Positions 15,087 through 61,462 of a DNA stretch of 64,000 nt are shown one piece after another; within the stretch, counting starts at the first letter, position 1, and each line of letters begins with the position of its first letter. Source of the stretch: an uncultured Latescibacterota bacterium (GTDB lineage: Bacteria; Latescibacterota; UBA2968). The notes under the pieces are model-generated. The model did not search any database. It was given only the letters and a program-made list of their open reading frames with translations, and was not told the origin of the DNA. The stretch is from assembly GCA_958295785.1 (NCBI GenBank), contig OY282377.1, forward strand, positions 3,534,896-3,598,895. The letters are read 5' to 3'. Made by a program: the position numbers and the translations under genes.

Positions 15087-15089
15087 AAA

Positions 15090-15941: not shown

Positions 15942-16065
15942 GCCACACGCCTATATTCTCGCTTTTCATCTGCGTTCATTTTTAACAACAGCTTCTTAGA
16001 AACCCTAACATAAAGAAATCAAGCGTCTGAAACAGATGAGAGAACAGCCGATGGAGAGGAACGCC

Positions 16066-16377: not shown

Positions 16378-16423
16378 AATCGCGGCCAGAGGCAGCCCAT
16401 TGGCATCGGTGATCCCATGATGC

Positions 16424-16909: not shown

Positions 16910-17026
16910 CGCTTTTTGTTAGGGCTTCTTAGAGTTTTTTTTGTGTAAAAAAGAAAAAATATCGTATATTGAAAATATCCATATTGAAAATATCCCTTAT
17001 TGAGCCTTTTGTGAAAGGATGACCAC

Positions 17027-45625: not shown

Positions 45626-45654
45626 AGGTGAATAAGCACGTTGCGCCAAAACAA

Positions 45655-45690
45655 AAGCCTCCGAGACGATGTGTTCGGAGGCTTTTTTAG
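45655..45690 (+). terminator. Intrinsic terminator (AGCCTCCGA...CGGAGGCT + TTTTTT)
   Basis: 9-bp stem, T-run. Confidence 0.5.
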
Positions 45691-45775
45691 ATGTCGGCCT
45701 CAGCGTATCCATTGCAAGTTGGGGTGGCGCGGGGCATTCCTAATTCCCGATGGGATGCAGGAACTCGAAATCAAA

Positions 45776-46429
45776 TCAAATGGGTATAACACCCCTTTGT
45801 TTGAGCGTTTCGGGGGTATCAGCCGAGACAGAGATGGCGCCGAGTTCTCTGAGGTGGGCGTTGTCCGGCGAGTCCAAAGCGAATACCGGCTTGCCCTGGG
45901 CGAGCGCGGCCTTGCACAGCCCCTCGGTCTTGCTGCCCGGTTCGGCATGGGCGATGAAGATGTGGTCGGCCAACGCGGCGACGTAGGCATTGCGCCGGGC
46001 AGCTATAGCGACGGTTGGGCGCCGGATGGTGTCGGCGAAAAAGGACAGGATGAGCAAGCGGCCTTGGGTGAGTGCGGGTTTCCAACTTTTCGGGATTCGC
46101 AGGCGCTGGAATCCCCGCGCCGGACAAACGACAATGGACGCCGTGCCCCGCAACAGAATGTCCAGAAATTCTTTCTCCATCGCGGACTGAAAACCGCCGA
46201 TGATCGCCGCGTCTGCCTCTCGGAGTGCCTGCGCCAGATCATAGGTCTTGAGGATAATGTCGCCCGGACACCGCACAGAGCAAAAGAACCCAATCGGGGT
46301 TCTGTCCAGTGCGCCGAGATTGCCTCGTGCTGTGACGACAGGAGGGGTGCCGTTATCCTCACATTGGCGCAACACCGCCGGATAGTCCGCAGCGTCGGGG
46401 CTTAACAGCGTTTGCTTCTCATTATCCAT
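45776..46429 (-). CDS. DprA/Smf-like Rossmann-fold (SLOG) domain protein, short stand-alone version
   Basis: Matches DprA Rossmann core (...AIIGGF...EKEFL..., NAYVAALADHIFIAHAEPGSKTEGLCKAALAQGKPVFAL) but only 217 aa. Confidence 0.55.
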   Translation of the reverse strand: MDNEKQTLLSPDAADYPAVLRQCEDNGTPPVVTARGNLGALDRTPIGFFCSVRCPGDIILKTYDLAQALREADAAIIGGFQSAMEKEFLDILLRGTASIVVCPARGFQRLRIPKSWKPALTQGRLLILSFFADTIRRPTVAIAARRNAYVAALADHIFIAHAEPGSKTEGLCKAALAQGKPVFALDSPDNAHLRELGAISVSADTPETLKQRGVIPI

Positions 46430-46584: not shown

Positions 46585-46864
46585 GCGAGATACAAATTAC
46601 GCCCTGCTTTCGCCGCGCTTAGGAGAAGGCCAGCGCGGGATTGCTCGATGGGCAGTAGCTTCCCATTTGCGCGATTTATTCCCCTTCGACAACCGGATGG
46701 CCGTCTTCACCGCGTTCTGGGATCCTCGGATCTTCGTCGGTGAGGATGGCTTCTGACTCAGTGGGAGGGTCTTGAGTCTCATGGTTTATCTCCTTGAATT
46801 GACCCAAGAGGGTCAGCCCTTCATTTAGCTTGGGATTAGGGCATCAAAAATTGCATCTAATTCC
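46585..46864. repeat. Direct repeat B copy 1: degenerate copy of the 3' end of the protease gene plus its downstream sequence
   Basis: Approx 95% identical by eye to 47345-47634; a 1-nt deletion (AATCCCAAGC vs AATCCCCAAGC) frameshifts the protease reading frame. Confidence 0.7.
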
Positions 46865-47100: not shown

Positions 47101-47316
47101 TCACATTCGTTGTTTGAAGTGTACGCAAAAATAAAATTGGTAGGCGATCATGTCGCGCTTGTGGGCGATGTCTTTGAGCGCGTAAGGCTTGTCGGCGACC
47201 GTGACTTCAACATCCGCTCCGCCGGGGTTCTAGCTGAACTCGTCAGTGAACAGCGTCTGGAGATCAAAGGTCTCCAGATGCTGTTTGACTTTGTTTCTGT
47301 CGAGAGGCGTCGACAT
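47101..47316 (-). pseudogene. Remnant of the N-terminus (approx first 60 codons) of a third PglX-like methyltransferase copy, with an in-frame TAG
   Basis: Translation MSTPLDRNKVKQHLETFDLQTLFTDEFS*NPGGADVEVTVADKPYALKDIAHKRDMIAYQ parallels MNFNRNTVKRHLENFDLQTLFIEELGWDHGGADTEVTIAGKTYALEAIAHKRGMVAYQ; TGG to TAG at 47229-47231. Confidence 0.6.
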
Positions 47317-47344: not shown

Positions 47345-47634
47345 CAGAATACAAATTACGCCCTGCTTTCGCCGTGCTTAGGAGAAGGCCAGCGCGGGAT
47401 TGCTCGATGGGCAGTAGCTTCCCATTTGCGCGATTTATTCCCCTTCGACAACCGGATGGCCGTCTCCACCGCGTTCCGAGTTCCTCGGCTCCGCGTTGGT
47501 GGAGTCGATTTCTGACTCTGTGGAGAGGTCTTGAGTCTCATGGTTTACCTCCTTGAATTGACCCAAGAGGGTCAGCCCTTCATTTAGCTTGGGGATTAGG
47601 GCATTAAAAATTTCATCTAATTCCTGCGGTGATT
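47345..47634. repeat. Direct repeat B copy 2 (functional 3' end of the protease gene and downstream sequence)
   Basis: See copy 1. Confidence 0.7.
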
Positions 47635-48469
47635 TTTCAACTTTTAGACCGATCCTCTCGGCCTCATCCGAGTCAATCACAAATCCGTGCTCGGGATATT
47701 GTTCCACTAAACGACGTGCTATCTTTCTCGATTGTTCATCTGTGTGTTTTGATGATAGCAAACGGATCGCATACTCCTCAGCCACTTGCAAAACTCGTGC
47801 CATTTGTGTGTAATGCACTGCGTCAATATTCTCTATTAAGGGCCGTATAAAATTGGCTGTGTACTCAAGGACAGGCGGCAAAATGGTTTCTATCTTTTTT
47901 CCTGTTCGCCCTAACAACAGCAACATAGTTTGATAGAAAACATTGAGTGCAGCGGCATTTAATCGTTCGAGGGTGTGAACCTCGTCAAGTGCCGACATAA
48001 CATTCTCTCTATCGACATCTCTTATTTGGACATCAAGCGGTCCCAACTCGGCATCTACCCCCAAGTAAATTTGATGTGCGCCGAGGGCAAGAAGTGTGGC
48101 CGCGCTTTTGGCATATCGGGGAATGAGTGCTATGAAACCGGCTCGTCGATTGAAAAGCCGAGCAATCTGATAGGCCACTCGAGTATCCCCGCCCGATGAA
48201 TCTATCAGTAGCAACGCTGGTTGTTCTGAGGATATCTGGCTCTTTCTTTCCAAAAATTCATGTTGCAACCCATCAGAAATTGGTTCTTCGCCAAAGAGGA
48301 ATAGCCAAAGCGGTAGATTCTCAAACTGCAATTGAGAGGGCAGGACAGCGTTCAAAGATCTCACGCTCATCTCTTGCAACTGACATAGCAGACGAGCAAA
48401 CTCGTCATCCAGTTCGGCTTTTTCGCCACAATATATGTCAGCGGTGTATTTCCGTTGGTTTTGGGACAT
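47435..48469 (-). CDS. SDH-family / ClpP-fold serine protease
   Basis: ClpP-like active-site context LLLIDSSGGDTRVAYQIARLF (compare ClpP INSPGG), approx 344 aa. Confidence 0.55.
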   Translation of the reverse strand: MSQNQRKYTADIYCGEKAELDDEFARLLCQLQEMSVRSLNAVLPSQLQFENLPLWLFLFGEEPISDGLQHEFLERKSQISSEQPALLLIDSSGGDTRVAYQIARLFNRRAGFIALIPRYAKSAATLLALGAHQIYLGVDAELGPLDVQIRDVDRENVMSALDEVHTLERLNAAALNVFYQTMLLLLGRTGKKIETILPPVLEYTANFIRPLIENIDAVHYTQMARVLQVAEEYAIRLLSSKHTDEQSRKIARRLVEQYPEHGFVIDSDEAERIGLKVEKSPQELDEIFNALIPKLNEGLTLLGQFKEVNHETQDLSTESEIDSTNAEPRNSERGGDGHPVVEGE

Positions 48470-48572
48470 TCGTCTTCCTCCTTATCAGCACGTTTCTGAC
48501 AATTTAGCCGCCTAACCGAGATTTGTCAAGACAGGAACTTCTCATCATGCCTTGCTCGTGCATTGCTATTGC

Positions 48573-48806
48573 TCACCGCCCCATGCGATACTTGATGTCG
48601 TAGTTGATGATGAAGTCCAATTCCTCGTCCGTGAAGCCGTAGTGTTTGGCCAACACGCGGTCAATTTCGTCGATAATAGGCTTTGATTCCCTATGGTAGT
48701 ACTCATAATCCGTTTGCTTAGTTCCAACAAATTTTTTGTTTTCTTCCAAGTGCAGTTCAAGAGACCTGCCAAGCTTGATGAGTGACTTTCTATTAGTTTT
48801 AGACAT
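48573..48806 (-). pseudogene. Displaced C-terminal fragment (77 codons) of methyltransferase copy 1, separated from the gene body by the IS
   Basis: Begins exactly at the IS left end; tail ...IDEIDRVLAKHYGFTDEELDFIINYDIKY parallels the copy-2 C-terminus ...HEIDEWISTTFSIKPERVEEI. Confidence 0.6.
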
Positions 48807-49900
48807 TTAGGACTTACGCATGCTGAGTTAAAAAAGGGTGCAATTCCGTAAAATTTATCACTTTGAGGAGGTATCAATGCGCCACCCGACGCGTTTGGAT
48901 TACTGTCAGTATCTGCTTAGCAGTCCCCTCAACTATACCCTGACCCATTTCGCCGACCATAGCGAAGGGTTCAGTCATGATATGATCAACCGCTATCTCG
49001 CCGGTGCGCGTATCCCACCCCGCTTGGTGTGGGAACACGTCAAAGACCACATCGCGTTGACGCCCAAAGGCTATGTGATCTTTGATGACACGGTTTTAGA
49101 CAAGCGACACGCACGCAAGATCGCGTTAGTGCGCCGTCAATATAGCGGCAACGCCCAAGGCGTCATCAACGGCATCGGGGTGGTCACATGTGTCTATGTC
49201 AATCCGCAAGAGGATCGGTTCTGGCTGATTGACTATCGGATTTATGACCCGCAAGGCGATGGCAAAACCAAATTGGATCATCTCAAGGACATGCTCTCTG
49301 GGTTGGTCTATCAGAAGCGCCTTCCTTTTACCGGGGTCTTGATGGACAGTTGGTATGCGACCAAAACGGTCATGCTACACATAGAGCAGATGCAAAAAAC
49401 CTATTATTGTCCCCTCAAGACGAACCGGCGCGTGGACGATTCGGCAGGCACAATCCCCTACCAGCGCGTAGATAGCTTAACTTGGACTCAAGAGGAGCGC
49501 AAACAAGGCAAGTCCATTAAAATCAGAGGGTTCCCCAAAGACCACAAAGTGAAATTATTCCGGGTGGCGTCTTCTGCCAGACGCACGGCGTATGTCGTGA
49601 CCAACGACCATGCTCAAAACGATTCTTCAGTGGTACAACAGGTGTGTCACCAAAGATGGAAAATTGAGCAATTTCACCGCGAAGTCAAACAAGTGACCGG
49701 GCTTGAAAAGTGTCAATGCCGGTTGGCACGCATTGTACGAAATCATATTGGGTGTGCGATGTTAGTTTGGATAAGACTCGAGCAGGTGGCCTATCAAACA
49801 GGACAAACCATTTATCAAGTCAAATACCGAGGGCTGGCTGACTTCTTGAGACAACAACTCAAAGCACCTCATATTCCAATGGTGATTGCGTAAGTCCTAA
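48807..49900 (+). mobile_element. Insertion sequence (approx 1.09 kb) with 13-bp perfect terminal inverted repeats TTAGGACTTACGC / GCGTAAGTCCTAA, inserted into methyltransferase copy 1
   Basis: Inverted repeats at 48807-48819 and 49888-49900; flanking CAT/ATG triplet appears duplicated (48804-48806 and 49901-49903). Confidence 0.7.
48877..49893 (+). CDS. DDE transposase (IS4/IS5/IS701-superfamily-like)
   Basis: GAGGAGG RBS; candidate DDE residues in VIFDDTVLDK, VLMDSWYATK and RWKIEQFHREVKQ. Confidence 0.65.
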   Translation: MRHPTRLDYCQYLLSSPLNYTLTHFADHSEGFSHDMINRYLAGARIPPRLVWEHVKDHIALTPKGYVIFDDTVLDKRHARKIALVRRQYSGNAQGVINGIGVVTCVYVNPQEDRFWLIDYRIYDPQGDGKTKLDHLKDMLSGLVYQKRLPFTGVLMDSWYATKTVMLHIEQMQKTYYCPLKTNRRVDDSAGTIPYQRVDSLTWTQEERKQGKSIKIRGFPKDHKVKLFRVASSARRTAYVVTNDHAQNDSSVVQQVCHQRWKIEQFHREVKQVTGLEKCQCRLARIVRNHIGCAMLVWIRLEQVAYQTGQTIYQVKYRGLADFLRQQLKAPHIPMVIA

Positions 49901-52900
49901 CATTTTTCCCAAGTCAATACGAAAATCGCTCACGTCATCAACAGTCAAATGCCAGCAGTCTCCTTTAGTTTCCCAATGCCAAAAGAACAAGCTGGAATTA
50001 AACACACCTGACAACTCCTCTGGTTGAATTCCTTTTGCCGGATAATAAGTTTTAAACTCCCGTGACTTCTTGGAGGCAAGAAAACACTTTACCCACATCA
50101 TCAATCTAATGTTCAAATAGAATGGTTGAGAATCAGTTTTGCGATTAGAGTACAACGTATTCAGTGGGAGAATGTCCCTGTTGATTTTGCTGATAATGGA
50201 TTCTTCAAGTTCCGTTGCAAACTTACGAATAAATCCCTTTCGATAGTTTAGTCTGTTGTAATCCAGGTTGTTAAAAAGATGATTCCTTTCACTGTCGGGA
50301 GCTCTTCCATAAAAGTGAGTAAATCCTGTGGAATGGATGGCAGAATTTCCCTTAGTGCAAAGTATGATTGAAAGTTTCTGATGTACCCCAAAAAATAATG
50401 TAGATGGTCTGTCAGCATAATTACTGATATGCAACATAGGATAGGTTGCGGTTATGACATTTCGAGCTTGATTCATCCTCTTGGTTGACACCCAAGAGAT
50501 AGGAATTATCCACCCCGCATTTCTTTGACCGAGCGAGGTTCCCCGCTCAAGCACGAAGGCGTAAAGGCTGCCGCAGGATTCGGTTTCGTAGCCTTTGACG
50601 GTGTAGCCTTCTTTGGTTTTTTTGACTTTGCTGTATTCCACATACGGCGGATTCCCAATAATCACATCAAAGCCACCCTTGTGCATGATGCCGTAGAACT
50701 CGACGAACCAATGAAACGGCTGATGGCTGTCGCGCCATCGCTGATACGCTCGCCGGCTCTTGGGCTTGACGCCGTATTCACCGGCCAAATACTCGTCCAA
50801 CTCATCGCGCAGATTAGTGAGGCGTTTCCGCAATTTCAACTTCGCGCTGGCAAACGCACTGGCGTCCATCCCAGGTTTCGTCTGCATCTGGCGGAACTGG
50901 CGAAAGGCGCGGTCGGCTTTCTCGGCGCGTTCCTCGATCTGGGGAAGCGACAGTTGCTTGATCAGGTCGCTACTCAATGCTTCCTTCACTTGCGCGAGCG
51001 AAGTGAAGCCGACGAGCGTGTTCCCGGCGCGGACGTTGAAGTCGATGTCGGGCAACGGCTCGATCTGCTCGTAAGTATCCAACTGCGCGACGAGTTTGAG
51101 GAACAGCCGCAGCTTGCAGATTTCCACCGCCTCCTCCATGATATCCACGCCGTAGAGATTGCCGATGATGATCGACTTGAGAATGAAATAGCGTTCGCTG
51201 GCGTGCTCTTCAACCTGTTGCAACACTTGGCGAAAATCGCGCAGTTTCTCGGGGCGGTGCTTGCGGTTCAAGCGTTCCAAGTCGTCGAGGAAACCGCGCA
51301 TGGCCTCCAAGCAGGCGACGTAGAGCGGCTCCAAAATGTTGAGCGCGGCGAATAGGAATGCGCCCGAGCCGCAGGTGGGATCGAGGACGGAGACCGCGTT
51401 GATCGCCTTCCAAAAAGCGTGCACCAGTTCCGGCCCCTCGCTGCTCGCAATGACGTCTTGGGCAAACTTTTCGATGTCCAAATTGTACGTGATCAGATCG
51501 TTGATCGACGCGATTGCACCAGCGGCGAGTTTGGCGCGGATGTCCTCATAGCGTTGGCGGCGGGCAATGTGCTCGCGCCACGTCTCGGTCGGCAGAGCGT
51601 ATTCGGGCGGGGCCGCTTCGTTCCAGCCATCGCGCTTTGCTATGTCGTCCAGACCGGCGGCGATCTCCGGCGGCAGGGCGCGTTTTTCGGCAAGGTCCGC
51701 GTTGTTGTGCAGATCGTAGGTGATGCCGTGACGCACCGCCTCGTGAAAGTAGCGATCCGGGGCGTCCGACAGCAACCGCCATATCCAGCCATCGGGCGAG
51801 AAGGCGATGGCGCATGCCTTTCGCGCTCGGTCGAACAAGAACGGAATGATGCTGTTGCGGCTAATGTAGCCGGTAATGTCTTCCTTGGTGTAGTACGCCC
51901 CCATCTGTTTCTGGTTGATGTACTTCTCGAAAATGTAGCCGAGCACATCGGGGTTGATCTCGTTGTCGTTGCGGAGCGGCCGGTCGTCGAGATGCCATTG
52001 GTACGCGTCGAAGAACGCGAAAATCTGTTCAAAGGCTTCGTCGGGAATGTGAATTTCCGGGTTGTCCCGCTCCAAGTCATGCACCTCGAACAAGCCGCCG
52101 TTGAGATAGGGGACTTTGCCGATCAGGGCGACCAAGGCGGGGGCGCGGTCAGCTTCGGGCTGTCCCAAGCCCTCGTGAAACAGCCGCAACAGGAACAGCC
52201 GGTAAAAGCCGAGGAAGTTGCCCTCGCCCTGTTGCTGGCGCACCCGTTCCAAACGGTCGCGCAGATAGTTTGGGTTGTTGTCGAGAAAACCGCGCTTCTG
52301 GATGAAGTAAATGAACATCATGCGATTGAGCATCAGCGAGGCGTACCACTCGCGGTCAGTCAAATTTTCAATGCCCTCGATGAAGTCCAGAAACGCGCTG
52401 TGCTCTTTCTTGAACCGGTCATAGAATCGCTTGGCGACTTTCTCCACATCGAAAGCCGCCCGCACTCGGCTCGTCACATCGACAAGGGTGAGGGCTTCTT
52501 CCTCCTCCAGCGCGAAGGCGATTTGCTCTAACTTCTGGACCAGGGATTCGCCCGATTGCCCCCGATCATAGATATGCTGTCGAGACCGATCGGGGCGACC
52601 CGGTTCGCGCTTGACCCATTGCCAATACTGGGCATCGGCGCGTGCGTAGATGATGAGGTGTTCGCGGACGGTCTTGGCGACATTCCGCTCGATCTTCTGC
52701 CGAGTGGGGTAATCGGGCAAGGCCCTGTCCGAATCCGCCATGTATTGATAGGCAACCATACCGCGCTTGTGGGCGATGGCCTCGAGCGCGTAAGTCTTAC
52801 CGGCGATAGTAACCTCGGTATCCGCTCCGCCGTGGTCCCAGCCGAGTTCTTCAATGAAGAGCGTCTGAAGATCGAAGTTCTCCAGATGTCGTTTGACTGT

Positions 52901-52918
52901 GTTTCTGTTGAAATTCAT
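49859..52918 (-). CDS. PglX/DrmMI-like (Eco57I-superfamily) N6-adenine DNA methyltransferase, copy 1; TRD truncated by the IS, so likely inactivated
   Basis: Motif I VLDPTCGSGAFL, motif IV IIGNPPYV; last 13 aa (LGLTQSPLEYEVL) are encoded by the IS right end. Confidence 0.75.
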   Translation of the reverse strand: MNFNRNTVKRHLENFDLQTLFIEELGWDHGGADTEVTIAGKTYALEAIAHKRGMVAYQYMADSDRALPDYPTRQKIERNVAKTVREHLIIYARADAQYWQWVKREPGRPDRSRQHIYDRGQSGESLVQKLEQIAFALEEEEALTLVDVTSRVRAAFDVEKVAKRFYDRFKKEHSAFLDFIEGIENLTDREWYASLMLNRMMFIYFIQKRGFLDNNPNYLRDRLERVRQQQGEGNFLGFYRLFLLRLFHEGLGQPEADRAPALVALIGKVPYLNGGLFEVHDLERDNPEIHIPDEAFEQIFAFFDAYQWHLDDRPLRNDNEINPDVLGYIFEKYINQKQMGAYYTKEDITGYISRNSIIPFLFDRARKACAIAFSPDGWIWRLLSDAPDRYFHEAVRHGITYDLHNNADLAEKRALPPEIAAGLDDIAKRDGWNEAAPPEYALPTETWREHIARRQRYEDIRAKLAAGAIASINDLITYNLDIEKFAQDVIASSEGPELVHAFWKAINAVSVLDPTCGSGAFLFAALNILEPLYVACLEAMRGFLDDLERLNRKHRPEKLRDFRQVLQQVEEHASERYFILKSIIIGNLYGVDIMEEAVEICKLRLFLKLVAQLDTYEQIEPLPDIDFNVRAGNTLVGFTSLAQVKEALSSDLIKQLSLPQIEERAEKADRAFRQFRQMQTKPGMDASAFASAKLKLRKRLTNLRDELDEYLAGEYGVKPKSRRAYQRWRDSHQPFHWFVEFYGIMHKGGFDVIIGNPPYVEYSKVKKTKEGYTVKGYETESCGSLYAFVLERGTSLGQRNAGWIIPISWVSTKRMNQARNVITATYPMLHISNYADRPSTLFFGVHQKLSIILCTKGNSAIHSTGFTHFYGRAPDSERNHLFNNLDYNRLNYRKGFIRKFATELEESIISKINRDILPLNTLYSNRKTDSQPFYLNIRLMMWVKCFLASKKSREFKTYYPAKGIQPEELSGVFNSSLFFWHWETKGDCWHLTVDDVSDFRIDLGKMLGLTQSPLEYEVL

Positions 52919-52958
52919 GGTGAAACCTCTACTGCGAAACTACGAAAAACGCGAAAAG
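50650..52958. repeat. Approx 2.3-kb near-identical direct repeat (copy 1) covering the methyltransferase 5' leader through the NPPY motif
   Basis: Matches 55195-57503; identity degrades at the low-coordinate boundary. Confidence 0.8.
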
Positions 52959-53016
52959 GCGCAAAAAAAACAATGCCCATTCTTCAGTCCTTTCGCGCCT
53001 TTCACGTTTTTCGTAG
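52936..53016. repeat. Long imperfect hairpin (22-bp arms CTACGAAAAACGCGAAAAGGCGC / GCGCCTTTCACGTTTTTCGTAG) between the HNH gene and methyltransferase copy 1
   Basis: Arms are near-perfect reverse complements separated by approx 35 nt; same motif family recurs at 57481-57668 and 58058. Confidence 0.45.
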
Positions 53017-53040
53017 TCCCTTTTCGCCCCATGCGATTTC

Positions 53041-54009
53041 TCAGGCCAACTCGACTCCCCGCAACTCACTGCCGAGTGAAAGGTTATCCGGTGCAGGAAA
53101 CCACTCGTCATTGGCTGGCAGAAGTAGTTCACTTCTGAGTTGCTCTTCGTACCTACTCAGCCCATCGGCTCTGCCCATTTTTTTTAAGTGCTTAACTCTA
53201 GACGAGTTCAGATGGATTGAGTAGTCATCCCGAACATAGAGTAGTCCGGTATCGAAAGACCGATGATGCAAGGAGCAAAGAGCCAAGCCATTGCTGACTA
53301 CATCATGCCCTTGTAGATGGGCGTGTGGCACAATATGAGCGGCATCTACAAGGCCCAGTTGAATCCCGCACATTGCACACCTGTAGGAGTACGCTTCTAA
53401 CACCGCTTGCCTGAATCGTGGGTTTCGAGGATACGCAGTACTAGTTACCTGTATTCTCTGTCGCTTGACCGCGATTGGTCGCGCAAGGAATTGCTTATAG
53501 TCTCGGGCTATCCTTTGCAATGCCCGATCAGTATCTCGGTGAAGTGCTGCCTGGTTCTCCACATACAAACCAATGAGATCGGGGCGAAACATGATCACGA
53601 TTTGCCCATCGGTGTCGGTATGAGTTGATAATCCCTGTGCGGCAGCCTCCTGCATGCGCGATAACCGAGTATAGAGAGAAAATCGCTGGACTCTCGATTT
53701 CCGGTCCAAAAGTCTGTCTGGATCCCATGCGCTGAATGTATTTACGTCTGCGGAAAATCCGAGAACGAGAACCTTGTCCTCCCTTTGTCTATTCCTGAGT
53801 TTCTCAGGCAAGTCGCCTGGACATTGGATCCGATATTCATCCGGCGTACGGCTAGTAGAATGGATGTTGCCAATGAAAACAGTAACGAACTTGTCTTTGA
53901 AGAAAAAGCGGTACGGATTGTCTCTGCCATCAAAATAGACGAGGTCTGTGTGTTGTCGAAAAGCGTCGAACAATGCATGGAACAGATCCATCTTGTTTAG
54001 TATGACCAT
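53041..54009 (-). CDS. HNH endonuclease with approx 200-aa uncharacterised N-terminal domain
   Basis: C-terminal HNH motif CAMCGIQLGLVDAAHIVPHAHLQGHDVVSNGLALCSLHHRSFD. Confidence 0.7.
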   Translation of the reverse strand: MVILNKMDLFHALFDAFRQHTDLVYFDGRDNPYRFFFKDKFVTVFIGNIHSTSRTPDEYRIQCPGDLPEKLRNRQREDKVLVLGFSADVNTFSAWDPDRLLDRKSRVQRFSLYTRLSRMQEAAAQGLSTHTDTDGQIVIMFRPDLIGLYVENQAALHRDTDRALQRIARDYKQFLARPIAVKRQRIQVTSTAYPRNPRFRQAVLEAYSYRCAMCGIQLGLVDAAHIVPHAHLQGHDVVSNGLALCSLHHRSFDTGLLYVRDDYSIHLNSSRVKHLKKMGRADGLSRYEEQLRSELLLPANDEWFPAPDNLSLGSELRGVELA

Positions 54010-54037
54010 TTCAAATTATCCTCAATCGTTATGCCGA

Positions 54038-57000
54038 CTAAATTTCTTCAACGCGCTCAGGTTTAATCGAGAATGTCGTCGATATCCACTCGTCAATTTC
54101 GTGCAGACGACCATCGGCGGAAAAATCCATGGGACTCGGCGGCAGGAAACGCTCTCTTAGAGATGGGGGGATGTTCTTCTCTCCGGCTTCGTAGTTGATA
54201 CTACGTACCAAAGAAATAAAAAAAAATAATTCTTTCAAATCAGCCCAACCTGCACCCAGTCCCGAAAGAAATACAACATCGGCCTTTCTCGTCAGTGAAA
54301 GCAACTTTTGATAGTTGAAATTTCCAACGTACTTACCTGCGTTTTTCTTAAAGACAAGCGCGGAATATCTTTGTTGGTGTAGTAATTCTCCAATGGTAGC
54401 CAGCCTGCGTAAATGATCTTTTGGAAACGAAGCGATGGGCGCGAGGAGGTCCGTGAGTAACCAGTTTGTAACGTGGAATCCATCCCCTCGCGTTAGCCAA
54501 TACCAAAAGCAGGCGTCGCCTGCTGTACTCGCGAGCGCGGCAAATGCTATCTCATCAGAGGGCAGTGTCAGCCAGCCGCACTGAGCGGGATCGAGCACAC
54601 ATCCGTCATCTACGTGCAATACGGGTGGCTGTTCAAGATATGTAGAAATGAAATTCCGCGCTGTGGGCGAAAATCCCAATCTGACTGTTGCACCATCTGT
54701 AGCGCAGGGCGAGGTTGGCTTTGAGGGAGATGACTCGATGTGCAATGCCAACAGTTTTGCACAGTAGCGATTCGCCAAGCGGGGAATGCCGAAATTTTCG
54801 GCGGGGACGCCATTAGCTACCTTGTTATAGGTTATGTTGTTCAGCAGAAAAGTCCGAAACGCCGAGCGCCATCTAAAGAGACGAGTGGCGAACGAATCGC
54901 CATCCGATGGGGAACTAAGCCAGATTGTGCATCGCTGGCTTACGCCGGAAAAGAGGGTTGCGGGCCCATTGTCGAAAGAAGAAAACCAATGCGTCCCCCT
55001 GTTGGCGAGTTGCCCCCGGAGGTCAGAAAACTCAAAGCTGAAGGTCACAGAAAGGGGAACAATAACCCCGTAGCGTCCGCACTGATTGGTGATGCGGTGG
55101 GATTGCATGACCACGTATCCATAAATGTCCGGGAATTTCAGGGACTTGGGCGACTGCACAACGTATTCCAGTGACTTGCAGTTGATATACGGCGGGTTCC
55201 CGATCACCACATCAAAGCCGCCCTTGTGCATGATGCCGTAGAACTCGACGAACCAATGAAACGGCTGGTGGCTGTCGCGCCATCGCTGATACGCTCGCCG
55301 GCTCTTGGGCTTGACGCCGTATTCACCGGCCAAATACTCGTCCAATTCGTCGCGCAGATTGGTGAGGCGTTTCCGCAATTCCGACTTCGCGCTGGCAAAC
55401 GCACTGGCATCCATCCCAGGTTTCGTCTGCATGGCGTGGAACTGGCGAAAGGCGTGGTCGGCTTTCTCGGCGCGTTTCTCGATCTGGGGAAGCGACAGTT
55501 GCTTGATCAGGTCGCTACTCAATGCTTCCTTCACTTGCGCGAGCGACGTGAAGCCGACGAGCGTGTTCCCGGCGCGGACGTTGAAGTCGATGTCGGGCAA
55601 CGGCTCGATCTGCTCGTAAGTATCCAACTGCGCGACGAGTTTGAGGAACAGCCGTAGCTTGCAGATTTCCACCGCCTCCTCCATGATATCCACGCCATAG
55701 AGATTGCCGATGATGATCGACTTGAGAATGAAATAGCGTTCGCTGGCGTGCTCTTCAACCTGTTGCAACACTTGGCGGAAGTCGCACAGTTTCTCGGGAT
55801 GGTGCTTGCGGTTCGAGCGTTCCAAGTCGTCGAGGAAACCGCGCATGGCCTCCAAGCAGGCGACGTAGAGCGGCTCCAAAATGTTGAGCGCGGCGAATAG
55901 GAATGCGCCCGAGCCGCAGGTGGGATCGAGGACGGAGACCGCGTTGATCGCCTTCCAAAAAGCGCGAATCAGTTCCGGCCCCTCGCTGCTCGCAATGACG
56001 TCTTGGGCAAACTTTTCGATGTCCAAATTGTACGTGATCAGATCGTTGATCGACGCGATTGCACCAGCGGCGAGTTTGGCGCGGATGTCCTCATAGCGTT
56101 GGCGGCGGGCGATGTGCTCGCGCCACGTCTCGGTCGGCAGAGCGTATTCGGGCGGGGCCGCTTCGTTCCAGCCATCGCGCTTTGCTATGTCGTCCAGACC
56201 GGCGGCGATCTCCGGCGGCAGGGCGCGTTTTTCGACAAGGTCCGCGTTGTTGTGCAGATCGTAGGTGATGCCGTGACGCACCGCCTCGTGAAAGTAGCGA
56301 TCCGGGGCGTCCGACAGCAACCGCCATACCCAGCCATCGGGCGAGAAGGCGATGGCGCATGCCTTTCGCGCTCGGTCGAACAAGAACGGAATGATGCTGT
56401 TGCGGCTAATGTAGCCGGTGATGTCTTCCTTGGTGTAGTACGCCCCCATCTGTTTCTGGTTGATGTACTTCTCGAAAATGTAGCCGAGCACATCGGGGTT
56501 GATCTCGTTGTCGTTGCGGAGCGGCCGGTCGTCGAGATGCCATTGGTACGCGTCGAAGAACGCGAAAATCTGTTCAAAGGCTTCGTCGGGAATGTGAATT
56601 TCCGGGTGGTCCCGCTCCAAGTCATGCACCTCGAACAAGCCGCCATTGAGATAGGGGACTTTGCCGATCAGGGCGACCAAGGCGGGGGCGCGGTCGGCTT
56701 CGGGCTGTCCCAAGCCCTCGTGAAACAGCCGCAACAGGAACAGCCGGTAAAAGCCGAGGAAGTTGCCCTCGCCCTGTTGCTGGCGCACCCGTTCCAAACG
56801 GTCGCGCAGATAGTTTGGGTTGTTGTCGAGAAAACCGCGCTTCTGGATGAAGTAAATGAACATCATGCGATTGAGCATCAGCGAGGCGTACCACTCGCGG
56901 TCAGTCAAATTTTCAATGCCCTCGATGAAGTCCAGAAACGCGCTGTGCTCTTTCTTGAACCGATCATAGAATCGCTTGGTGACTTTCTCCACATCGAAAG

Positions 57001-57463
57001 CCGCCCGCACTCGGCTCGTCACATCGACAAGGGTGAGGTCTTCTTCCTCCTCCAGCGCGAAGGCGATTTGCTCTAACTTCTGGACCAGGGATTCGCCCGA
57101 TTGCCCCCGATCATAGATATGCTGTCGAGACCGATCGGGGCGACCCGGTTCGCGCTTGACCCATTGCCAATACTGGGCATCGGCGCGTGCGTAGATGATG
57201 AGGTGTTCGCGGACGGTCTTGGCGACATTCCGCTCGATCTTCTGCCGAGTGGGGTAATCGGGCAAGGCCCTGTCCGAATCCGCCATGTATTGATAGGCAA
57301 CCATACCGCGCTTGTGGGCGATGGCCTCGAGCGCGTAAGTCTTACCGGCGATAGTAACCTCGGTATCCGCTCCGCCGTGGTCCCAGCCGAGTTCTTCAAT
57401 GAAGAGCGTCTGAAGATCGAAGTTCTCCAGATGTCGTTTGACTGTGTTTCTGTTGAAATTCAT
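54038..57463 (-). CDS. PglX/DrmMI-like (Eco57I-superfamily) N6-adenine DNA methyltransferase, copy 2 (1141 aa, apparently intact)
   Basis: Motif I VLDPTCGSGAFL, motif IV VIGNPPYI; N-terminal approx 745 aa approx 97-98% identical (by eye) to copy 1; C-terminal approx 390 aa unrelated. Confidence 0.8.
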   Translation of the reverse strand: MNFNRNTVKRHLENFDLQTLFIEELGWDHGGADTEVTIAGKTYALEAIAHKRGMVAYQYMADSDRALPDYPTRQKIERNVAKTVREHLIIYARADAQYWQWVKREPGRPDRSRQHIYDRGQSGESLVQKLEQIAFALEEEEDLTLVDVTSRVRAAFDVEKVTKRFYDRFKKEHSAFLDFIEGIENLTDREWYASLMLNRMMFIYFIQKRGFLDNNPNYLRDRLERVRQQQGEGNFLGFYRLFLLRLFHEGLGQPEADRAPALVALIGKVPYLNGGLFEVHDLERDHPEIHIPDEAFEQIFAFFDAYQWHLDDRPLRNDNEINPDVLGYIFEKYINQKQMGAYYTKEDITGYISRNSIIPFLFDRARKACAIAFSPDGWVWRLLSDAPDRYFHEAVRHGITYDLHNNADLVEKRALPPEIAAGLDDIAKRDGWNEAAPPEYALPTETWREHIARRQRYEDIRAKLAAGAIASINDLITYNLDIEKFAQDVIASSEGPELIRAFWKAINAVSVLDPTCGSGAFLFAALNILEPLYVACLEAMRGFLDDLERSNRKHHPEKLCDFRQVLQQVEEHASERYFILKSIIIGNLYGVDIMEEAVEICKLRLFLKLVAQLDTYEQIEPLPDIDFNVRAGNTLVGFTSLAQVKEALSSDLIKQLSLPQIEKRAEKADHAFRQFHAMQTKPGMDASAFASAKSELRKRLTNLRDELDEYLAGEYGVKPKSRRAYQRWRDSHQPFHWFVEFYGIMHKGGFDVVIGNPPYINCKSLEYVVQSPKSLKFPDIYGYVVMQSHRITNQCGRYGVIVPLSVTFSFEFSDLRGQLANRGTHWFSSFDNGPATLFSGVSQRCTIWLSSPSDGDSFATRLFRWRSAFRTFLLNNITYNKVANGVPAENFGIPRLANRYCAKLLALHIESSPSKPTSPCATDGATVRLGFSPTARNFISTYLEQPPVLHVDDGCVLDPAQCGWLTLPSDEIAFAALASTAGDACFWYWLTRGDGFHVTNWLLTDLLAPIASFPKDHLRRLATIGELLHQQRYSALVFKKNAGKYVGNFNYQKLLSLTRKADVVFLSGLGAGWADLKELFFFISLVRSINYEAGEKNIPPSLRERFLPPSPMDFSADGRLHEIDEWISTTFSIKPERVEEI

Positions 57464-57503
57464 GGTGAAACCTCTACTGCGAAACTACGAAAAACGCGAA
57501 AAA
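55195..57503. repeat. Approx 2.3-kb near-identical direct repeat (copy 2)
   Basis: See 50650-52958. Confidence 0.8.
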
Positions 57504-57526
57504 GGCAAGGCCATAGCCCCGCTTTG

Positions 57527-57668
57527 ATTTTCGCGTCCTTTCGCGCTTTTCGTAGTGGAAAATACGATCATCTATAACTACGAAAGAGAAAAAAAAGACA
57601 AAGCCCACTCCTCGCCCCTTTCGCGTCCTTCCGCGCTTTTCGTAGTGGAAAATACGATCATCCTATAA
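57527..57668. repeat. Tandem approx 90-bp units containing palindromic motif TTTCGCGTCCTTTCGCGCTTTTCGTAGTGGAAAATACGATCATC in the methyltransferase-2 leader
   Basis: Units at 57527-57578 and 57620-57668 plus partial third copy at 58058-58085; CTACGAAA/TTTCGTAG inverted cores. Confidence 0.5.
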
Positions 57669-57686
57669 GACGCGAAAGGGATGTTT

Positions 57687-58052
57687 TACAATTCGTTGAC
57701 GAAACGTTCGTATTCTAATTTTGGGTGATAGCCGAAATTGACGAGCAGGCCGAGTTTCATACCTGTTGATTTCAGGTAATTGATGATTTGGCGCGATGTC
57801 GGTCTTGATTTCCACAATTATTGTGTCGAAACAGAGAAAATCAGGTAGGTAGAACTGCTTCAACGCCTGCCCTTTGTAACGAAGTTTCAATTTTGTCTTT
57901 TCCTTGTGCGGGATATCCGAAGAAGTGAATTCCATTGCGAGGCACTCTTGATAAACAGCTTCGAGAAAGCCGGATCCTTTTTCTTTGTACACTTCAAAGC
58001 AGGCACCGATAATCCGGTAACTTTCTTCCTGATAGACAATTTTTCCAGTCAT
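57687..58052 (-). pseudogene. GxxExxY-family (PD-(D/E)XK-like) protein gene with an internal frameshift or small deletion
   Basis: N-part MTGKIVYQEESYRIIGACFEVYKEKGSGFLEAVYQEC...IIVEIKTDIA in one frame; C-part QIINYLKSTGMKLGLLVNFGYHPKLEYERFVNEL in another; ATG overlaps helicase stop as ATGA. Confidence 0.6.
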
Positions 58053-61000
58053 AATTTTCGCGTCCTTTCGCGCTTTTCGTCGTTCATCAGACCCATAGAG
58101 CAGATAATGCGCGGCTCTTGGCGTTCGTCTTCTTCGTGCATGATGCAAAGCCGGTCGTCATCTCTGAGCGCGATAACCAATTGCGCGAGGGCCTCGTCGG
58201 AGATGCTGCTACGCAACTGGCGGTTCAGCGTATCCACCGCCGTTTGGCGCAGGGGATAGCGGTAAATGTCTTCAATTGTACGCCGCAGCGAATCGGTATC
58301 GAACAACGTGCCTTTGACGTTTTCCGCATAGCTCTTGAGCCTTTCATAAGCGCGAAACCGCGCACCGGATGGCCGGCCGAGATGACCGCCGACCTGCTTT
58401 TCCTCACGGGCGATATGTTCTGCGGCTTTGCGAACCAAATCGTGGTGGGTCTCGTGGCGCGGGAGGGCCGGCGTATCGGGCACGCATGCGGCGGCGTGCA
58501 AAATCTCGAATTGACTTTCGGTCACGCTATTGCCATCGCGATTCATCCACGCCAAGGCATCGTGCCCCTGCGCTGTACGCATATAAACCAGCGCGCCTTC
58601 GGGCCGCTGTGGCGTTTCCGGATATGCCATTGATGAATGCACCACGGATGGCATCGCTTCAATTTTCCGCTCGAGCGATGGATCGGCTGTTGTCGCGTTT
58701 TTCCAAATCTGATACGCATACGAGGCGAGATCGACATCCGTCTCGTCGTCGCTGTCGAGAATCCCCGCCTTTTCGTTGTAGAGGTCGAGCACGGCCCGTT
58801 GATCCTCATCCTCGAAAAACGCCTCGTCCGTTCCCATCACCTCGGCATTGTCGCGGAGGCGCGTCCGAACGCGGGCGCGAAGTCGGATCAAGCGTTCAAT
58901 GCCCTCGGCAGGCAAAAAGGAGCAGCACAAAATATCTCGCGCCTGTTGACCGATGCGGTCCACGCGCCCGGCCCGTTGAATCAAGCGGATAATCGCCCAC
59001 GGCAAATCGTAATTGACAACGATGGCGCAGTCTTGCAGGTTTTGCCCCTCACTGAGCACGTCGGTTGCGACCAGCACGCGCAACTCGCCTCTAGATGAGA
59101 CCCAAGCCGTCTTGTCGTTGCTCTTTGGACTGAACCGCCACGCGAGTTCCGTCGGGTTCGCCATGTCCCCAGTCGCGGCGGCTATCCCGGACACGCCGCG
59201 TGCTTTTAGCTCCATCTCCAAATAGCGCACCGTGTCGGCGAACTGCGTAAAGACCAGAATTTTGCGGTCGGGATGTTCGTCCATGAGCAGGACTTCCAAG
59301 GCGCGGAGTTTCGCGTCTTCAGCCGCCCGCCACGCGCCGAACTGCGCCAACAAATTGAGCAGCGTCTCGGTGTCGGCGACCAAGTTCCTGCGAAGGGCGT
59401 CGCCAAAATGATGCGAGGCCAACCACCGAAACCGCCTTGTGTAGGTGTTGGCAAAGCGTGCGTAGATCGCGGCAGCGCGGTTGCGAAAATCCCTTTCGGC
59501 TCTTAGCGGCGTCGGCTCTGCGGGGGCCTCATTCTCCTCGTCATCCGCATCAAAAAAATCCCCGATAGTCTGATCGGCGTCCTCGTCAAAAGACTGCGGA
59601 TCCAAGAGTCCCGCATCTGTCGTCCCTATCGGAAGCGGCAGGTCATTTTCAAGGGCATACAAAAAAATGAAGTTCCGCAGAACGTGCCGTTCAACCGACA
59701 GCAAGAAGGCGTGGCCGCTGCTCTCCAAGCGTTTGAACAAATTGGTTCGGCAAAAACCCATCAGCCGCTTGCCCGCGCGCGACAAATCGTCCAGCACCTT
59801 CTTTTCTCTCGGCGTGGGTGGCATAGGCGGCGACGCCCCGACGTAGTTGCCGAGTCCATAGCGCGGCAGTTCCAAGCTGTTTATGGCGTCGATCACGTCG
59901 TTTGCAAATAGCCGGGCGTACTGATCGTCAATGTCGAACGGAATCGTCTTTGGAACCCGAGTCGGAAAATACGACCGCGTGCCATCTTCAAAGGTCAGGT
60001 ACTTGCGACCACTGTGCGGATCCGTGTCGGCGTAGTGTGCACGAATAAAACTGCGCGTCCGGCGCACGAGATATAAGCGCATGAGCTCGCGCCAGTCGTC
60101 CGCGTACTCGGATTTTTCAAACGCGGATAGAGACCGCACAGACGCTTGGTGCCGGCGGATGAACTCGGTTTCGCCGATCTCCTGCAACATGCGCTCTGGG
60201 CGAATGCCCAAGTCCTCGTCTTCGGGCACAAACAAGCGGAGTTGGCTGGACAGATCGAGATACGTTTTGTTGTAGGGCGTCGCGGACAGCAGAATACACT
60301 TGCTGTCGTTTTCCCAGATGTATTCTCGGATGGCCCGGTAGCGTTTGCCCTCGCGGTTTCTCAGGTTGTGGCTTTCGTCGATGATCACCAACCGATACCG
60401 GCGCAGGTCGGGCAGTTCGTTGATGACGCGGCTCACCGATAGCACGCGGGCGCGCATGCGGTATTGATCGCGGTAATCCTCCCACATGGAAACGAGGTTT
60501 TTCGGACTTATGATCAGGGTTTCGAGGCCGTGATCGTCTTCGAACACACGCGCCAAGGCCGTCGCCATCAGGGTCTTGCCCAGCCCGACGACATCGCCGA
60601 TGATGACGCCGCCGCGTCGGTTGAGGTGATGCGCGGCGATTTTCACGGCAGCCGTTTGGAAATCGAGGAGTTTGTCGCCAAAATCTTTCGGGATGCGAAA
60701 TTCCGCCAAGCCGGCCCGCGCTTCTTGCGAGAGGTGGTACGCAATCTTGATGTAGATATGGTGCGGCGGGATCAGTTCTTCTCGCGCCCAACTCTCGTCG
60801 ATAATCTCGGCGAGCGCGTCAGAAATATCCACGCACCAGCGGTCATTCCAGCGGTCTTCAAACCACTGGGCGAGTTTTTCGCAGGCGTCTCGGTCGAGCA
60901 CGTCAATGTTGAGTTCGCCCTGTCGGGACAGCCCCGATAGCGTGAGATTGCTGCTTCCGAGATAGCCAACCGTCGGGTTGATCGGATCGGGACGGAATAA

Positions 61001-61462
61001 CAAGTAGAGCTTGGCGTGAAGCGGGTGTTTGAGAAAGAGCTTGACGACGACTTTCTCAGCCTTGATCTGCGCTGCCAACCGCCGCAGACCCGCCTCATCT
61101 TCATTGGTCGGCGCGCCCAAGATCAGTTGTTCCCGAAATTCTTCCGCGAGTCTTTTCTTTATGCGGTGTGCCGCCTGATTGTCGAGCGCGGAGCGATTGC
61201 CCGACAAGCTCGCGGACAGCCGAAACTCGTCGTGTGGCAAGCGTTGCATCCCAACGAGAAGCCGGCAACAATGTCCGACGCCTCCGCGCCACTTTTCCAC
61301 GTATTCATCAATTGACCGCCATCCTCGCAGGTTGAAATAGCCCACGCAAAAATCCGCCCGCTCTGCGATCTCCAGGGTCTCCGCCAACGCGGGATGGAGG
61401 TGTTGTTCAATATTGTCGAAAATTCGGGGCATACATGCTCCTACGGTTTGGAATTGGATCAT
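58049..61462 (-). CDS. Fusion protein: N-terminal PLD-family (single HKD) nuclease-like domain + SNF2-family helicase
   Basis: HKD motif HAKLYLLFRPD...GSSN; SNF2 motifs GLGKTL (I), IIDESHNLRN (II), helicase-C QRAGRVDRIGQ (VI); AGGAGA RBS. Confidence 0.8.
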   Translation of the reverse strand: MIQFQTVGACMPRIFDNIEQHLHPALAETLEIAERADFCVGYFNLRGWRSIDEYVEKWRGGVGHCCRLLVGMQRLPHDEFRLSASLSGNRSALDNQAAHRIKKRLAEEFREQLILGAPTNEDEAGLRRLAAQIKAEKVVVKLFLKHPLHAKLYLLFRPDPINPTVGYLGSSNLTLSGLSRQGELNIDVLDRDACEKLAQWFEDRWNDRWCVDISDALAEIIDESWAREELIPPHHIYIKIAYHLSQEARAGLAEFRIPKDFGDKLLDFQTAAVKIAAHHLNRRGGVIIGDVVGLGKTLMATALARVFEDDHGLETLIISPKNLVSMWEDYRDQYRMRARVLSVSRVINELPDLRRYRLVIIDESHNLRNREGKRYRAIREYIWENDSKCILLSATPYNKTYLDLSSQLRLFVPEDEDLGIRPERMLQEIGETEFIRRHQASVRSLSAFEKSEYADDWRELMRLYLVRRTRSFIRAHYADTDPHSGRKYLTFEDGTRSYFPTRVPKTIPFDIDDQYARLFANDVIDAINSLELPRYGLGNYVGASPPMPPTPREKKVLDDLSRAGKRLMGFCRTNLFKRLESSGHAFLLSVERHVLRNFIFLYALENDLPLPIGTTDAGLLDPQSFDEDADQTIGDFFDADDEENEAPAEPTPLRAERDFRNRAAAIYARFANTYTRRFRWLASHHFGDALRRNLVADTETLLNLLAQFGAWRAAEDAKLRALEVLLMDEHPDRKILVFTQFADTVRYLEMELKARGVSGIAAATGDMANPTELAWRFSPKSNDKTAWVSSRGELRVLVATDVLSEGQNLQDCAIVVNYDLPWAIIRLIQRAGRVDRIGQQARDILCCSFLPAEGIERLIRLRARVRTRLRDNAEVMGTDEAFFEDEDQRAVLDLYNEKAGILDSDDETDVDLASYAYQIWKNATTADPSLERKIEAMPSVVHSSMAYPETPQRPEGALVYMRTAQGHDALAWMNRDGNSVTESQFEILHAAACVPDTPALPRHETHHDLVRKAAEHIAREEKQVGGHLGRPSGARFRAYERLKSYAENVKGTLFDTDSLRRTIEDIYRYPLRQTAVDTLNRQLRSSISDEALAQLVIALRDDDRLCIMHEEDERQEPRIICSMGLMNDEKRERTRKL

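Follow-up and report, generated by a model that had tools for sequence, protein, structure and literature searches.

Among experimentally studied systems, the closest one with the effector architecture of the locus described here is MANTIS/Gao_RL/BREX-related type 2 (MtsA-D; PMC12839542, bioRxiv 10.64898/2026.09.23.753747). Our locus lies on the minus strand of a 64,000-nucleotide (nt) stretch of contig OY282377.1 from an uncultured Latescibacterota bacterium (hereafter, the window), and its conserved core is a gene for a PLD(HKD)-SNF2 helicase-nuclease followed by a gene for a large N6-adenine methyltransferase. MANTIS hemimethylates asymmetric 6-bp sites, its restriction specificity is set by the recognition domain of its methyltransferase, and cryo-electron microscopy of its effector, MtsD, shows an HKD plus superfamily 2 (SF2) dimer forming one PLD active site (bioRxiv 10.64898/2026.09.23.753747). 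Common to both systems are an N-terminal HKD/PLD nuclease fused to an SF2 helicase-like ATPase and an N6-adenine methyltransferase to which specificity falls (by prediction, in the window). The two differ in that (i) MANTIS needs a DUF499 AAA+ ATPase (MtsA) and a small DUF3780 protein (MtsB; DUF3870 in the preprint) to load its methyltransferase, whereas no DUF499 or DUF3780 gene lies in the block or is conserved in 80 related loci (the best 80 of at least 530 GTDB species representatives that encode a close relative of the helicase); and (ii) the MANTIS methyltransferase is of the MtsC/DUF1156 type, whereas that of the window is an Eco57I/Type IIG-like protein of 1100 amino acids (aa).

Type III restriction-modification (R-M) systems (Mod plus Res, e.g., EcoP15I) likewise consist of two genes, with a methyltransferase that holds the only recognition domain and an SF2 ATPase-nuclease that depends on it; their sites are asymmetric and hemimethylated, as we infer here from the GA(m6A)GGC motif assigned to the Synechocystis homolog Slr6050. 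The window locus departs from them by having (i) an N-terminal PLD/HKD nuclease and an SNF2-like motor, whereas Res has a C-terminal PD-(D/E)xK nuclease; (ii) a gamma-class methyltransferase of ∼1100 aa with a long N-terminal extension, whereas the Type III Mod is of the beta class; and (iii) the nuclease gene in first position. Membership of Type III was rejected, since neither such a Res nor a beta-class Mod is present. The best fold and profile matches of the methyltransferase are Type IIG/IIL enzymes (Eco57I, MmeI, BpuSI, DrdV) and BREX PglX, in which a gamma-class methyltransferase and, after it, a recognition domain are likewise parts of a single large polypeptide; unlike the Type IIG enzymes, the window protein has no recognizable N-terminal nuclease motif and is obligatorily paired with a helicase-nuclease gene.

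DISARM class 1 also combines a PLD nuclease, an SNF2 helicase, and an Eco57I-like adenine methyltransferase. In the window, however, the PLD and SNF2 parts are fused, and the DrmA/DrmB (DUF1998) core pair was found neither between 45.7 and 64 kb of the window nor in a sister-strain contig (L001), nor as a conserved family in the 80 loci. The scores against these families are far under threshold, with 119 bits against a cut-off of 610 for the NCBIfam DISARM_DrmD model, a partial PADLOC DrmMI match of ∼85 bits, and 55-60 bits against a cut-off of 500 for BREX_1_MTaseX (PglX). Two further hallmarks of BREX, the BrxC ATPase and the PglZ phosphatase, are encoded nowhere in the block, and the related loci do not conserve them either. 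The exclusion of canonical DISARM and of BREX, made in a first-pass annotation of the window, has held up against a complete known system hidden just outside the window: no drmA/drmB or brxC/pglZ gene lies in the ∼7 kb past its right edge, as represented by the sister contig, and no such family is conserved within ±10 kb of the 80 loci. Hma was rejected as well, since the HmaA match is limited to the Helicase_C region (6e-20), and the DUF1156 methylase and DUF499 ATPase are absent. The locus is thus not a member of DISARM, BREX, Hma, MANTIS, or Type III, and its likely working mode most resembles those of Type III and MANTIS.

Related gene arrangements have been mentioned before. Fusions of HKD to SWI2/SNF2 ATPases were noted in bacterial R-M contexts (PMC3417536, citing Iyer et al. 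2006), and Milman et al. (2023) listed a "Type II R-M CDS with an adjacent PLD + SNF CDS" as a context of programmed inversions (PMC9881135). The family is best described as a widespread ATP-dependent R-M variant that has been noticed in passing in the literature and is uncharacterized. In the literature that we searched, we found no description of (i) the near-universal linkage and co-variation of the helicase and methyltransferase genes, (ii) the DprA-like third gene, (iii) the contrast between free and frozen specificity in subtypes without and with a linked HNH gene, or (iv) the link between the "essential" methyltransferase of Synechocystis and the adjacent helicase-nuclease. The first-pass annotation had called the system non-canonical; its novelty was overstated, since the pair is a very widespread family whose methyltransferase is already filed as Type IIG.

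The helicase-nuclease and methyltransferase gene pair

The block is a genuine DNA-methylation-based defense locus. Profile searches with Pfam, NCBIfam, and PADLOC models bore out every domain call of the first-pass annotation, and its R-M-like reading stands as to the nature of the locus; the functional unit, however, differs from the eight-gene block that was drawn, several members of which are passengers or broken copies. Co-occurrence of the helicase and methyltransferase genes in other genomes had been named beforehand as a test, and in 78 of the 80 species-level loci the methyltransferase core lies directly downstream of the helicase gene on the same strand, the other 2 loci stopping at a contig edge. 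Furthermore, across 58 loci the identities of the helicase and of the methyltransferase core to the window proteins correlate with r = 0.94, which shows that the two genes travel as a unit. When all open reading frames (ORFs) of the related loci were clustered all against all, only the DprA-like gene and, in seven loci, the MTaX1-HNH gene recurred besides this core; the conserved neighborhood reaches further left than the boundary first drawn, to the DprA-like gene, which had gone unlisted. A promoter and terminator scan was uninformative on operon structure. The slot directly after the methyltransferase gene varies among loci, being occupied by an HNH, DUF4238, DUF2513, or DprA-like gene.

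The helicase-nuclease is the predicted restriction subunit and, as first proposed, still the most plausible candidate for a motor-nuclease that restricts DNA. Its HxK and GSSN motifs (a single HKD motif), as well as the GLGKT, DExx, SAT, and QRxGRxxRxGQ motifs, are invariant or nearly so in the 80 species. No region of it is as variable as that of the methyltransferase, the column identity being at least 0.60 in each 50-residue bin. The true start of the gene is likely at position 61432, which yields a protein of 1127 aa; a 100% identical protein (P0001) of this length starts 10 codons inside the window ORF. The best PADLOC match is "C3a139 HKD+Snf2" (3e-48, over 123-871), and some relatives bear the NCBI name "NgoFVII family restriction endonuclease". 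An AlphaFold model proved unusable, with a mean predicted local distance difference test (pLDDT) score of 45.0 from a shallow alignment in which every homolog was at least 75% identical.

Among the best 120 of 8000 scored relatives, most are 75-81% identical to the window helicase and come from several phyla. Across Latescibacterota, Acidobacteriota, Gammaproteobacteria, Nitrospirota, Chloroflexota, and Planctomycetota, the identity is 66-81%, as compared with 82-83% for AlaS within Latescibacterota. Such conservation across phyla is unusual for a defense gene and would imply recent and frequent horizontal transfer together with strong purifying selection. The pair is plasmid-borne in Anabaena, Nostoc, Pelobacter, Synechocystis, Rhodococcus, and others, where it is annotated as "helicase-related protein" and "DNA methyltransferase", and a search of a phage collection for a helicase homolog found none. 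Defense-type genes adjoin the pair in several loci, namely (i) reverse transcriptase and TIR-domain genes in L089 and L090 (in L089 at 12637-18830, with a 1249-aa reverse transcriptase); (ii) an Mrr-like nuclease gene in L002-L004; (iii) a ThiF/E2/multiubiquitin cluster on Synechocystis pSYSX (L091, 16924-19545); and (iv) genes for an ATP-binding protein and a DUF4276 protein in Anabaena (L092, 7503-9301).

Specificity regions, accessory genes, and the Synechocystis relative

Two large methyltransferase genes, MTase A and MTase B, are present in the window. MTase A is predicted to be the modification and target-recognition subunit, and its motif I (VLDPTCGSGAFL, residues 511-522) and motif IV (GNPPY, 755-759) are both invariant in its homologs. 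For both methyltransferases, the top-scoring match is the PADLOC model PDLC03628 ("REase_MTase_IIG"), with 943 bits over 1-888 of 1100 for MTase A and 1028 bits over 1-1013 of 1100 for MTase B, and this model is essentially Slr6050 of Synechocystis PCC 6803 (2662 bits over 1-1100 of 1100). On the strength of this full-length model similarity and of the gamma-class motifs, both methyltransferases belong to the Slr6050/M.Ssp6803IV family. By sequence profile, the closest solved methyltransferase is BREX PglX/BrxX; fold searches with methyltransferase models returned only generic methyltransferase matches, and the AlphaFold model has a pLDDT of 63.7.

In this family, column identity drops to 0.32-0.37 at residues ∼830-1050, a hypervariable stretch that lies between the conserved core and a likewise conserved tail of ∼90 residues; this arrangement is the signature of a specificity subunit. 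In the "B-type" proteins, which lie outside the HNH-linked subtype, the identity of the specificity regions stays at ∼0.2, even where the cores are 80-95% identical. Free variation of this kind is known from the specificity modules of Type I, Type III, and Type IIG systems, whose single recognition domain is used for methylation and restriction alike. By contrast, the variable region tracks the core in the eight "A-type" proteins with an HNH neighbor (mean identity of 0.73 vs 0.75).

The HNH protein encoded next to MTase A has an N-terminal domain, described as unknown in the first-pass annotation, that is Pfam MTaX1 ("methylase-associated X1"), which has been proposed to discriminate modified DNA (PMC10853773). 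An MTaX1-HNH gene lies directly 3′ of the methyltransferase gene in exactly those seven GTDB loci whose methyltransferase C-terminal regions are 54-76% identical to that of MTase A, and in L088; it was found only with an A-type methyltransferase C terminus. Moreover, a more distant A-type system (57% identity) again comprises a helicase, a methyltransferase, and an MTaX1-HNH gene, whereas another (61% identity) has a DUF4238 gene in the HNH slot. The HNH protein, first put forward as a possible second effector, is not a general one; it is an accessory tied to A-type methyltransferases and a putative effector. Frozen specificity in the A-type would be expected of an HNH protein that has to match the site on its own, or that has to dock on this particular C-terminal domain, for which a Pfam scan of the isolated region gave no match.

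The Synechocystis locus is the only relative with any experimental data, namely a motif assignment and a knock-out that does not segregate. Slr6050 (M.Ssp6803IV) is 45% identical to MTase A over 1017 aa, and the helicase encoded on pSYSX, which is 52.5% identical to that of the window, lies upstream of slr6050 by two small genes, one of which is annotated as a VapC-family toxin. The two loci agree in gene families, gene order, and strand, with a toxin-antitoxin pair in the spacer of the one and a cassette in that of the other. They differ in their specificity regions (21-33% identity), and the Synechocystis locus lacks an HNH gene, a DprA-like gene, and a duplicated methyltransferase gene. Hagemann et al. 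assigned the asymmetric motif GA(m6A)GGC to Slr6050 by elimination and from REBASE; unable to segregate an slr6050 knock-out, they took the gene to be essential (PMC6105098). The helicase goes unmentioned in that paper (PMC6105098). Methylation by Slr6050 is necessarily confined to one strand, because the complement of GA(m6A)GGC has no adenine. If the intact nuclease-helicase encoded alongside is a live restriction partner, the methyltransferase would be expected to be indispensable, although other explanations are possible.

The third recurrent gene encodes a 217-aa DprA-like (Rossmann/SLOG) protein, whose PADLOC matches are PsyrA (1.7e-14) and ShosA (5e-4). Among the 62 loci with at least 800 nt of downstream sequence, 40 have this gene downstream, always on the same strand and at a distance of 1-4200 nt. 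The protein is predicted to be a regulator or a partner that binds single-stranded DNA (ssDNA). RqlI/PsyrA includes a region of DprA homology; it binds a helicase of the RecQ type and neutralizes the toxicity of that helicase (PMC4670107). This behavior, together with the PsyrA and ShosA model matches, leads us to propose that the DprA-like protein may restrain or target the helicase-nuclease, perhaps by way of ssDNA. As in PsyrTA/RqlHI, a protein with DprA homology is encoded beside an SF2 helicase of potentially toxic activity, but the partner is a PLD-SNF2 protein in the window and a RecQ-PRTase in PsyrTA/RqlHI. The locus does not belong to the latter, for only the PsyrA-like domain is present and the block has no RecQ or PRTase gene; the window protein is about half the size of PsyrA, lacks its HTH, and is not always present. 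A 254-aa ORF on the plus strand (45641-46405) overlaps the DprA-like gene; it has tblastn matches in the same loci and no family match, and is almost certainly an antisense shadow.

Inactivated copies, passengers, and flanking sequence

Table 1. Features of the locus, in window coordinates.
Feature	Position	Strand	Description
PLD(HKD)-SNF2 helicase-nuclease	58049-61462	-	Pfam PLDc_2, RE_NgoFVII, SNF2-rel_dom, Helicase_C; 1137-aa ORF
GxxExxY/PDDEXK_3 gene	57692-58052 (ORF 57663-58148)	-	Frameshifted near 57790
Direct repeats	57529-57577 and 57619-57668		Copies of the last 27-50 nt of the helicase gene (58054-58080); repeat search and self-blastn
MTase A	54038-57463	-	Intact, 1141 aa; Eco57I and MmeI_Mtase domains; gamma-class N6-adenine methyltransferase; A-type C-terminal specificity region
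MTaX1-HNH nuclease	53041-54009	-	Pfam MTaX1 (2.7e-17) and HNH_2 (3e-11)
MTase B, 5′ part	49901-52918	-	∼1006 codons; canonical B-type specificity region; ORF 49859-52918, interrupted by an insertion sequence (IS)
IS701-family element	48807-49900	+	Transposase ORF 48838-49893; splits MTase B
MTase B, 3′ part	48567-48806	-	∼80 codons; conserved C-terminal tail displaced by the IS; previously a 103-aa ORF
SDH-type ClpP-fold serine protease	47435-48469	-	Pfam SDH_protease (4e-14)
Third methyltransferase, 5′-end relic	47136-47300	-	80% nt identity to 52744-52908 and 57289-57453
Second copy of the SDH 3′ end and downstream sequence	46590-46864		92% identity to 47349-47624
DprA-like (Rossmann/SLOG) protein	45776-46429	-	Pfam DNA_processg_A (5e-10); 217 aa

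MTase A and MTase B are 98% identical in DNA over 2323 nt (50642-52964 and 55187-57508), a stretch that comprises a 46-nt leader and codons 1-757, up to the NPPY motif. Beyond it, protein identity drops to ∼25%, so that only the C-terminal specificity region differs between the two. The second methyltransferase is a real paralog, as first described, but not an intact one: it is split by an element whose transposase matches the NCBIfam model transpos_IS701_2 (NF049921; 3.9e-119, 398 bits against a cut-off of 250), and which has perfect 14-bp terminal inverted repeats, unique in the window, and a 3-bp CAT target duplication. The displaced tail was located by tblastn with the C termini of ∼50 homologs, and in silico removal of the IS and of one CAT restored a 1082-aa MTase B ORF that aligns end to end with its homologs; we infer that MTase B is a recently IS-inactivated allele. 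A phase-variable shufflon (cf. PMC9881135) was considered for the two copies and rejected, as they are direct repeats without meaningful inverted repeats. A third methyltransferase copy or remnant, also claimed early on, does exist as a 5′-end relic.

Of the two ISs first placed in the block, only the IS701-family element, on the plus strand, lies inside it. The other may be window 15995-16932, which is 92.9% identical in nt to the region of a DUF4096-domain, transposase-like gene in the sister contig L001 (1723-2658), where the relative position differs; this window stretch is probably a mobile IS copy, and its ORF (16177-16932) has no Pfam match at 1e-4.

The SDH protease and the GxxExxY protein had been counted as components of the system, a role that neither retains. 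An SDH homolog is absent from the 80 related loci except for a C-terminal relic between the HNH and DprA-like genes of one of them (L008, 18105-18400), and the GC content is ∼48% at the SDH gene as against 55-58% in the flanks; the protease is a lineage-specific passenger. Two copies of its 3′ end bracket the third-methyltransferase relic, which suggests repeated stacking and decay of methyltransferase-to-SDH cassettes that recombine at conserved flanks. The GxxExxY gene is a pseudogene cassette: its ATG overlaps the helicase stop codon (ATGA), its TIGR04256 match (3e-23) covers only profile positions 2-76 of 116, and a tblastn search with an intact homolog from L022 splits it into two frames at ∼57790. 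It is flanked by three copies of the 3′-terminal 27-50 nt of the helicase gene (within 57529-58080), which look like a target duplication from cassette insertion. In other loci, the spacer between the helicase and methyltransferase genes holds MazE/AbrB plus PIN, HicAB, RelE-like, AbiE, DUF559, or GxxExxY cassettes and is a hotspot for the insertion of small selfish genes; because the spacer is such a landing pad, we regard GxxExxY as cargo rather than as a component.

To the right, the block is flanked by housekeeping genes (FGGY kinase and PhyH). Past the PhyH gene, and beyond the right edge of the window, the sister contig (L001, 1-7300) holds a second defense-like cluster, with genes for a 467-aa XPB/ERCC3-like helicase, MazE-type and UPF0175-type antitoxins, a DUF4096 transposase fragment, and a 937-aa N6_N4 methyltransferase. 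Pseudogenization in this contig was considered and rejected, since the fragmented genes coincide with clustered 1-nt insertions in a repeated region, which looks like assembly noise.

Possible modes of action and their implications

We consider the locus to be, rather probably, an ATP-dependent, Type III-like R-M system in which the target-recognition domain of the methyltransferase directs the PLD-SNF2 nuclease. The Eco57I/Slr6050-family methyltransferase, as the sole carrier of a target-recognition domain, would mark self DNA by methylating one adenine per short asymmetric site, leaving it hemimethylated, and at an unmethylated site it would couple physically to the PLD-SNF2 protein and recruit or license it. 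With a single HKD motif per helicase, two protomers would have to meet to form one nuclease active site (cf. the MtsD dimer), and ATP-driven movement of the SNF2 motor on DNA may bring two enzymes or two sites together before cutting. Such ATP-driven site linking would also solve the problem of autoimmunity at sites that are hemimethylated after replication, as in Type III and Type ISP systems. In this genome, MTase A would be the working methyltransferase and would form the active set with the MTaX1-HNH protein, a putative extra nuclease bound up with the A-type methyltransferase, while MTase B appears to be switched off by the IS. For the DprA-like protein, the probable role is to bind ssDNA or to keep the helicase-nuclease in check, by analogy with the effect of PsyrA/RqlI on a RecQ-like helicase.

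More tentatively, the family may represent a distinct minimal class of ATP-dependent R-M system, present in more than 500 species, in which a nuclease-less, Type IIG-like methyltransferase lends its recognition domain to an SNF2-driven PLD nuclease. A PsyrA-like DprA fold could then gate the system, for example by sensing ssDNA or by keeping the motor inactive on self DNA, and in the HNH-linked subtype a second, sequence-matched nuclease would freeze specificity.

Several points weigh against restriction by a methyltransferase-directed PLD-SNF2 nuclease. As to the experimental relatives, the Slr6050 motif comes from elimination and REBASE, the failure of the slr6050 knock-out to segregate could have another cause (e.g., polar effects on the neighboring VapBC), and MANTIS cleavage itself has not been reconstituted in vitro; our literature search found no experiment on this helicase family and no mention of "slr6047", the old tag that we infer for the Synechocystis helicase. 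As to the proteins, both AlphaFold models are poor and hence lend no structural support to an interface, and the DprA-like gene is missing in ∼35-40% of the close loci, as well as in the cyanobacterial and Pelobacter plasmid loci examined. Finally, REBASE and PADLOC class the methyltransferase as Type IIG, i.e., as a self-contained nuclease-methylase.

This last point leads to an explanation that we regard as unlikely, in which the methyltransferase is a complete Type IIG enzyme with an N-terminal nuclease, and the PLD-SNF2 protein either is a helper that clears or degrades the cut DNA or is an independent fellow traveler. The N-terminal ∼130 residues of the methyltransferase are modeled with fair confidence as an alpha/beta domain (helix-helix-three strands-helix-three strands) and could be a divergent nuclease. 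Nevertheless, no conserved D...(D/E)xK triad, i.e., no invariant acidic-acidic-lysine set, was seen in this domain among 38 or 61 homologs, and a Pfam scan of the isolated domain gave no match, the MmeI nuclease domain included. The Type IIG label itself is a database prediction with no assay behind it, the PADLOC model being essentially Slr6050. Moreover, a mere fellow traveler would not give the adjacency and the correlated identities that tie the helicase gene to the methyltransferase gene.

We find it improbable that the locus is instead BREX- or DISARM-like, e.g., a reduced DISARM class 1 (DrmD, DrmC, and DrmMI), with methylation marking self and the PLD-SNF2 protein blocking the replication of unmethylated DNA, or acting on replication intermediates, without sequence-directed double-strand cleavage. 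Partial profile similarity to DrmD (8e-32), BrxHI (1.5e-26), DrmMI (∼1e-25), and PglX, the standing of PglX/BrxX as the closest solved methyltransferase, and the hint of ssDNA involvement in the DprA-like partner all fit such a mode, yet the model scores are far under their cut-offs, none of DrmA, DrmB, BrxC, and PglZ occurs here or is conserved in the 80 loci, and the invariant HKD motif argues for nuclease chemistry in use.

That the locus serves little in phage protection, with the methyltransferase as an epigenetic regulator or the pair as a selfish addiction module acting by post-segregational killing, is very improbable: the Synechocystis methyltransferase does behave as essential, a hallmark of addiction modules (PMC6105098), and the frequent horizontal spread, the plasmid occurrence, and the toxin-antitoxin cassettes nested inside the pair suit such a module, but an R-M system can serve addiction and defense at once, selection to target changing invaders gives the best account of the hypervariable specificity regions, and immune-type genes adjoin several loci.

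If the helicase-nuclease is the restriction arm, as the Type III-like reading holds, the database label "Type IIG" for this methyltransferase family is wrong, and a very common two-gene R-M architecture, present in soil, sediment, cyanobacteria, and plasmids, has been missed by standard typing schemes. It would also be the simplest example known in which a methyltransferase steers a PLD-SNF2 effector, working without a loader ATPase, unlike MANTIS, and a good system for asking how hemimethylating defenses spare their own newly replicated DNA. The two subtypes, with free shuffling of specificity where the helicase stands alone and frozen specificity where an HNH gene is linked, are a natural experiment on the constraints that act on R-M specificity. 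Synechocystis PCC 6803 would then offer an example that is open to genetics, whose motif has been assigned and whose methyltransferase knock-out does not segregate.

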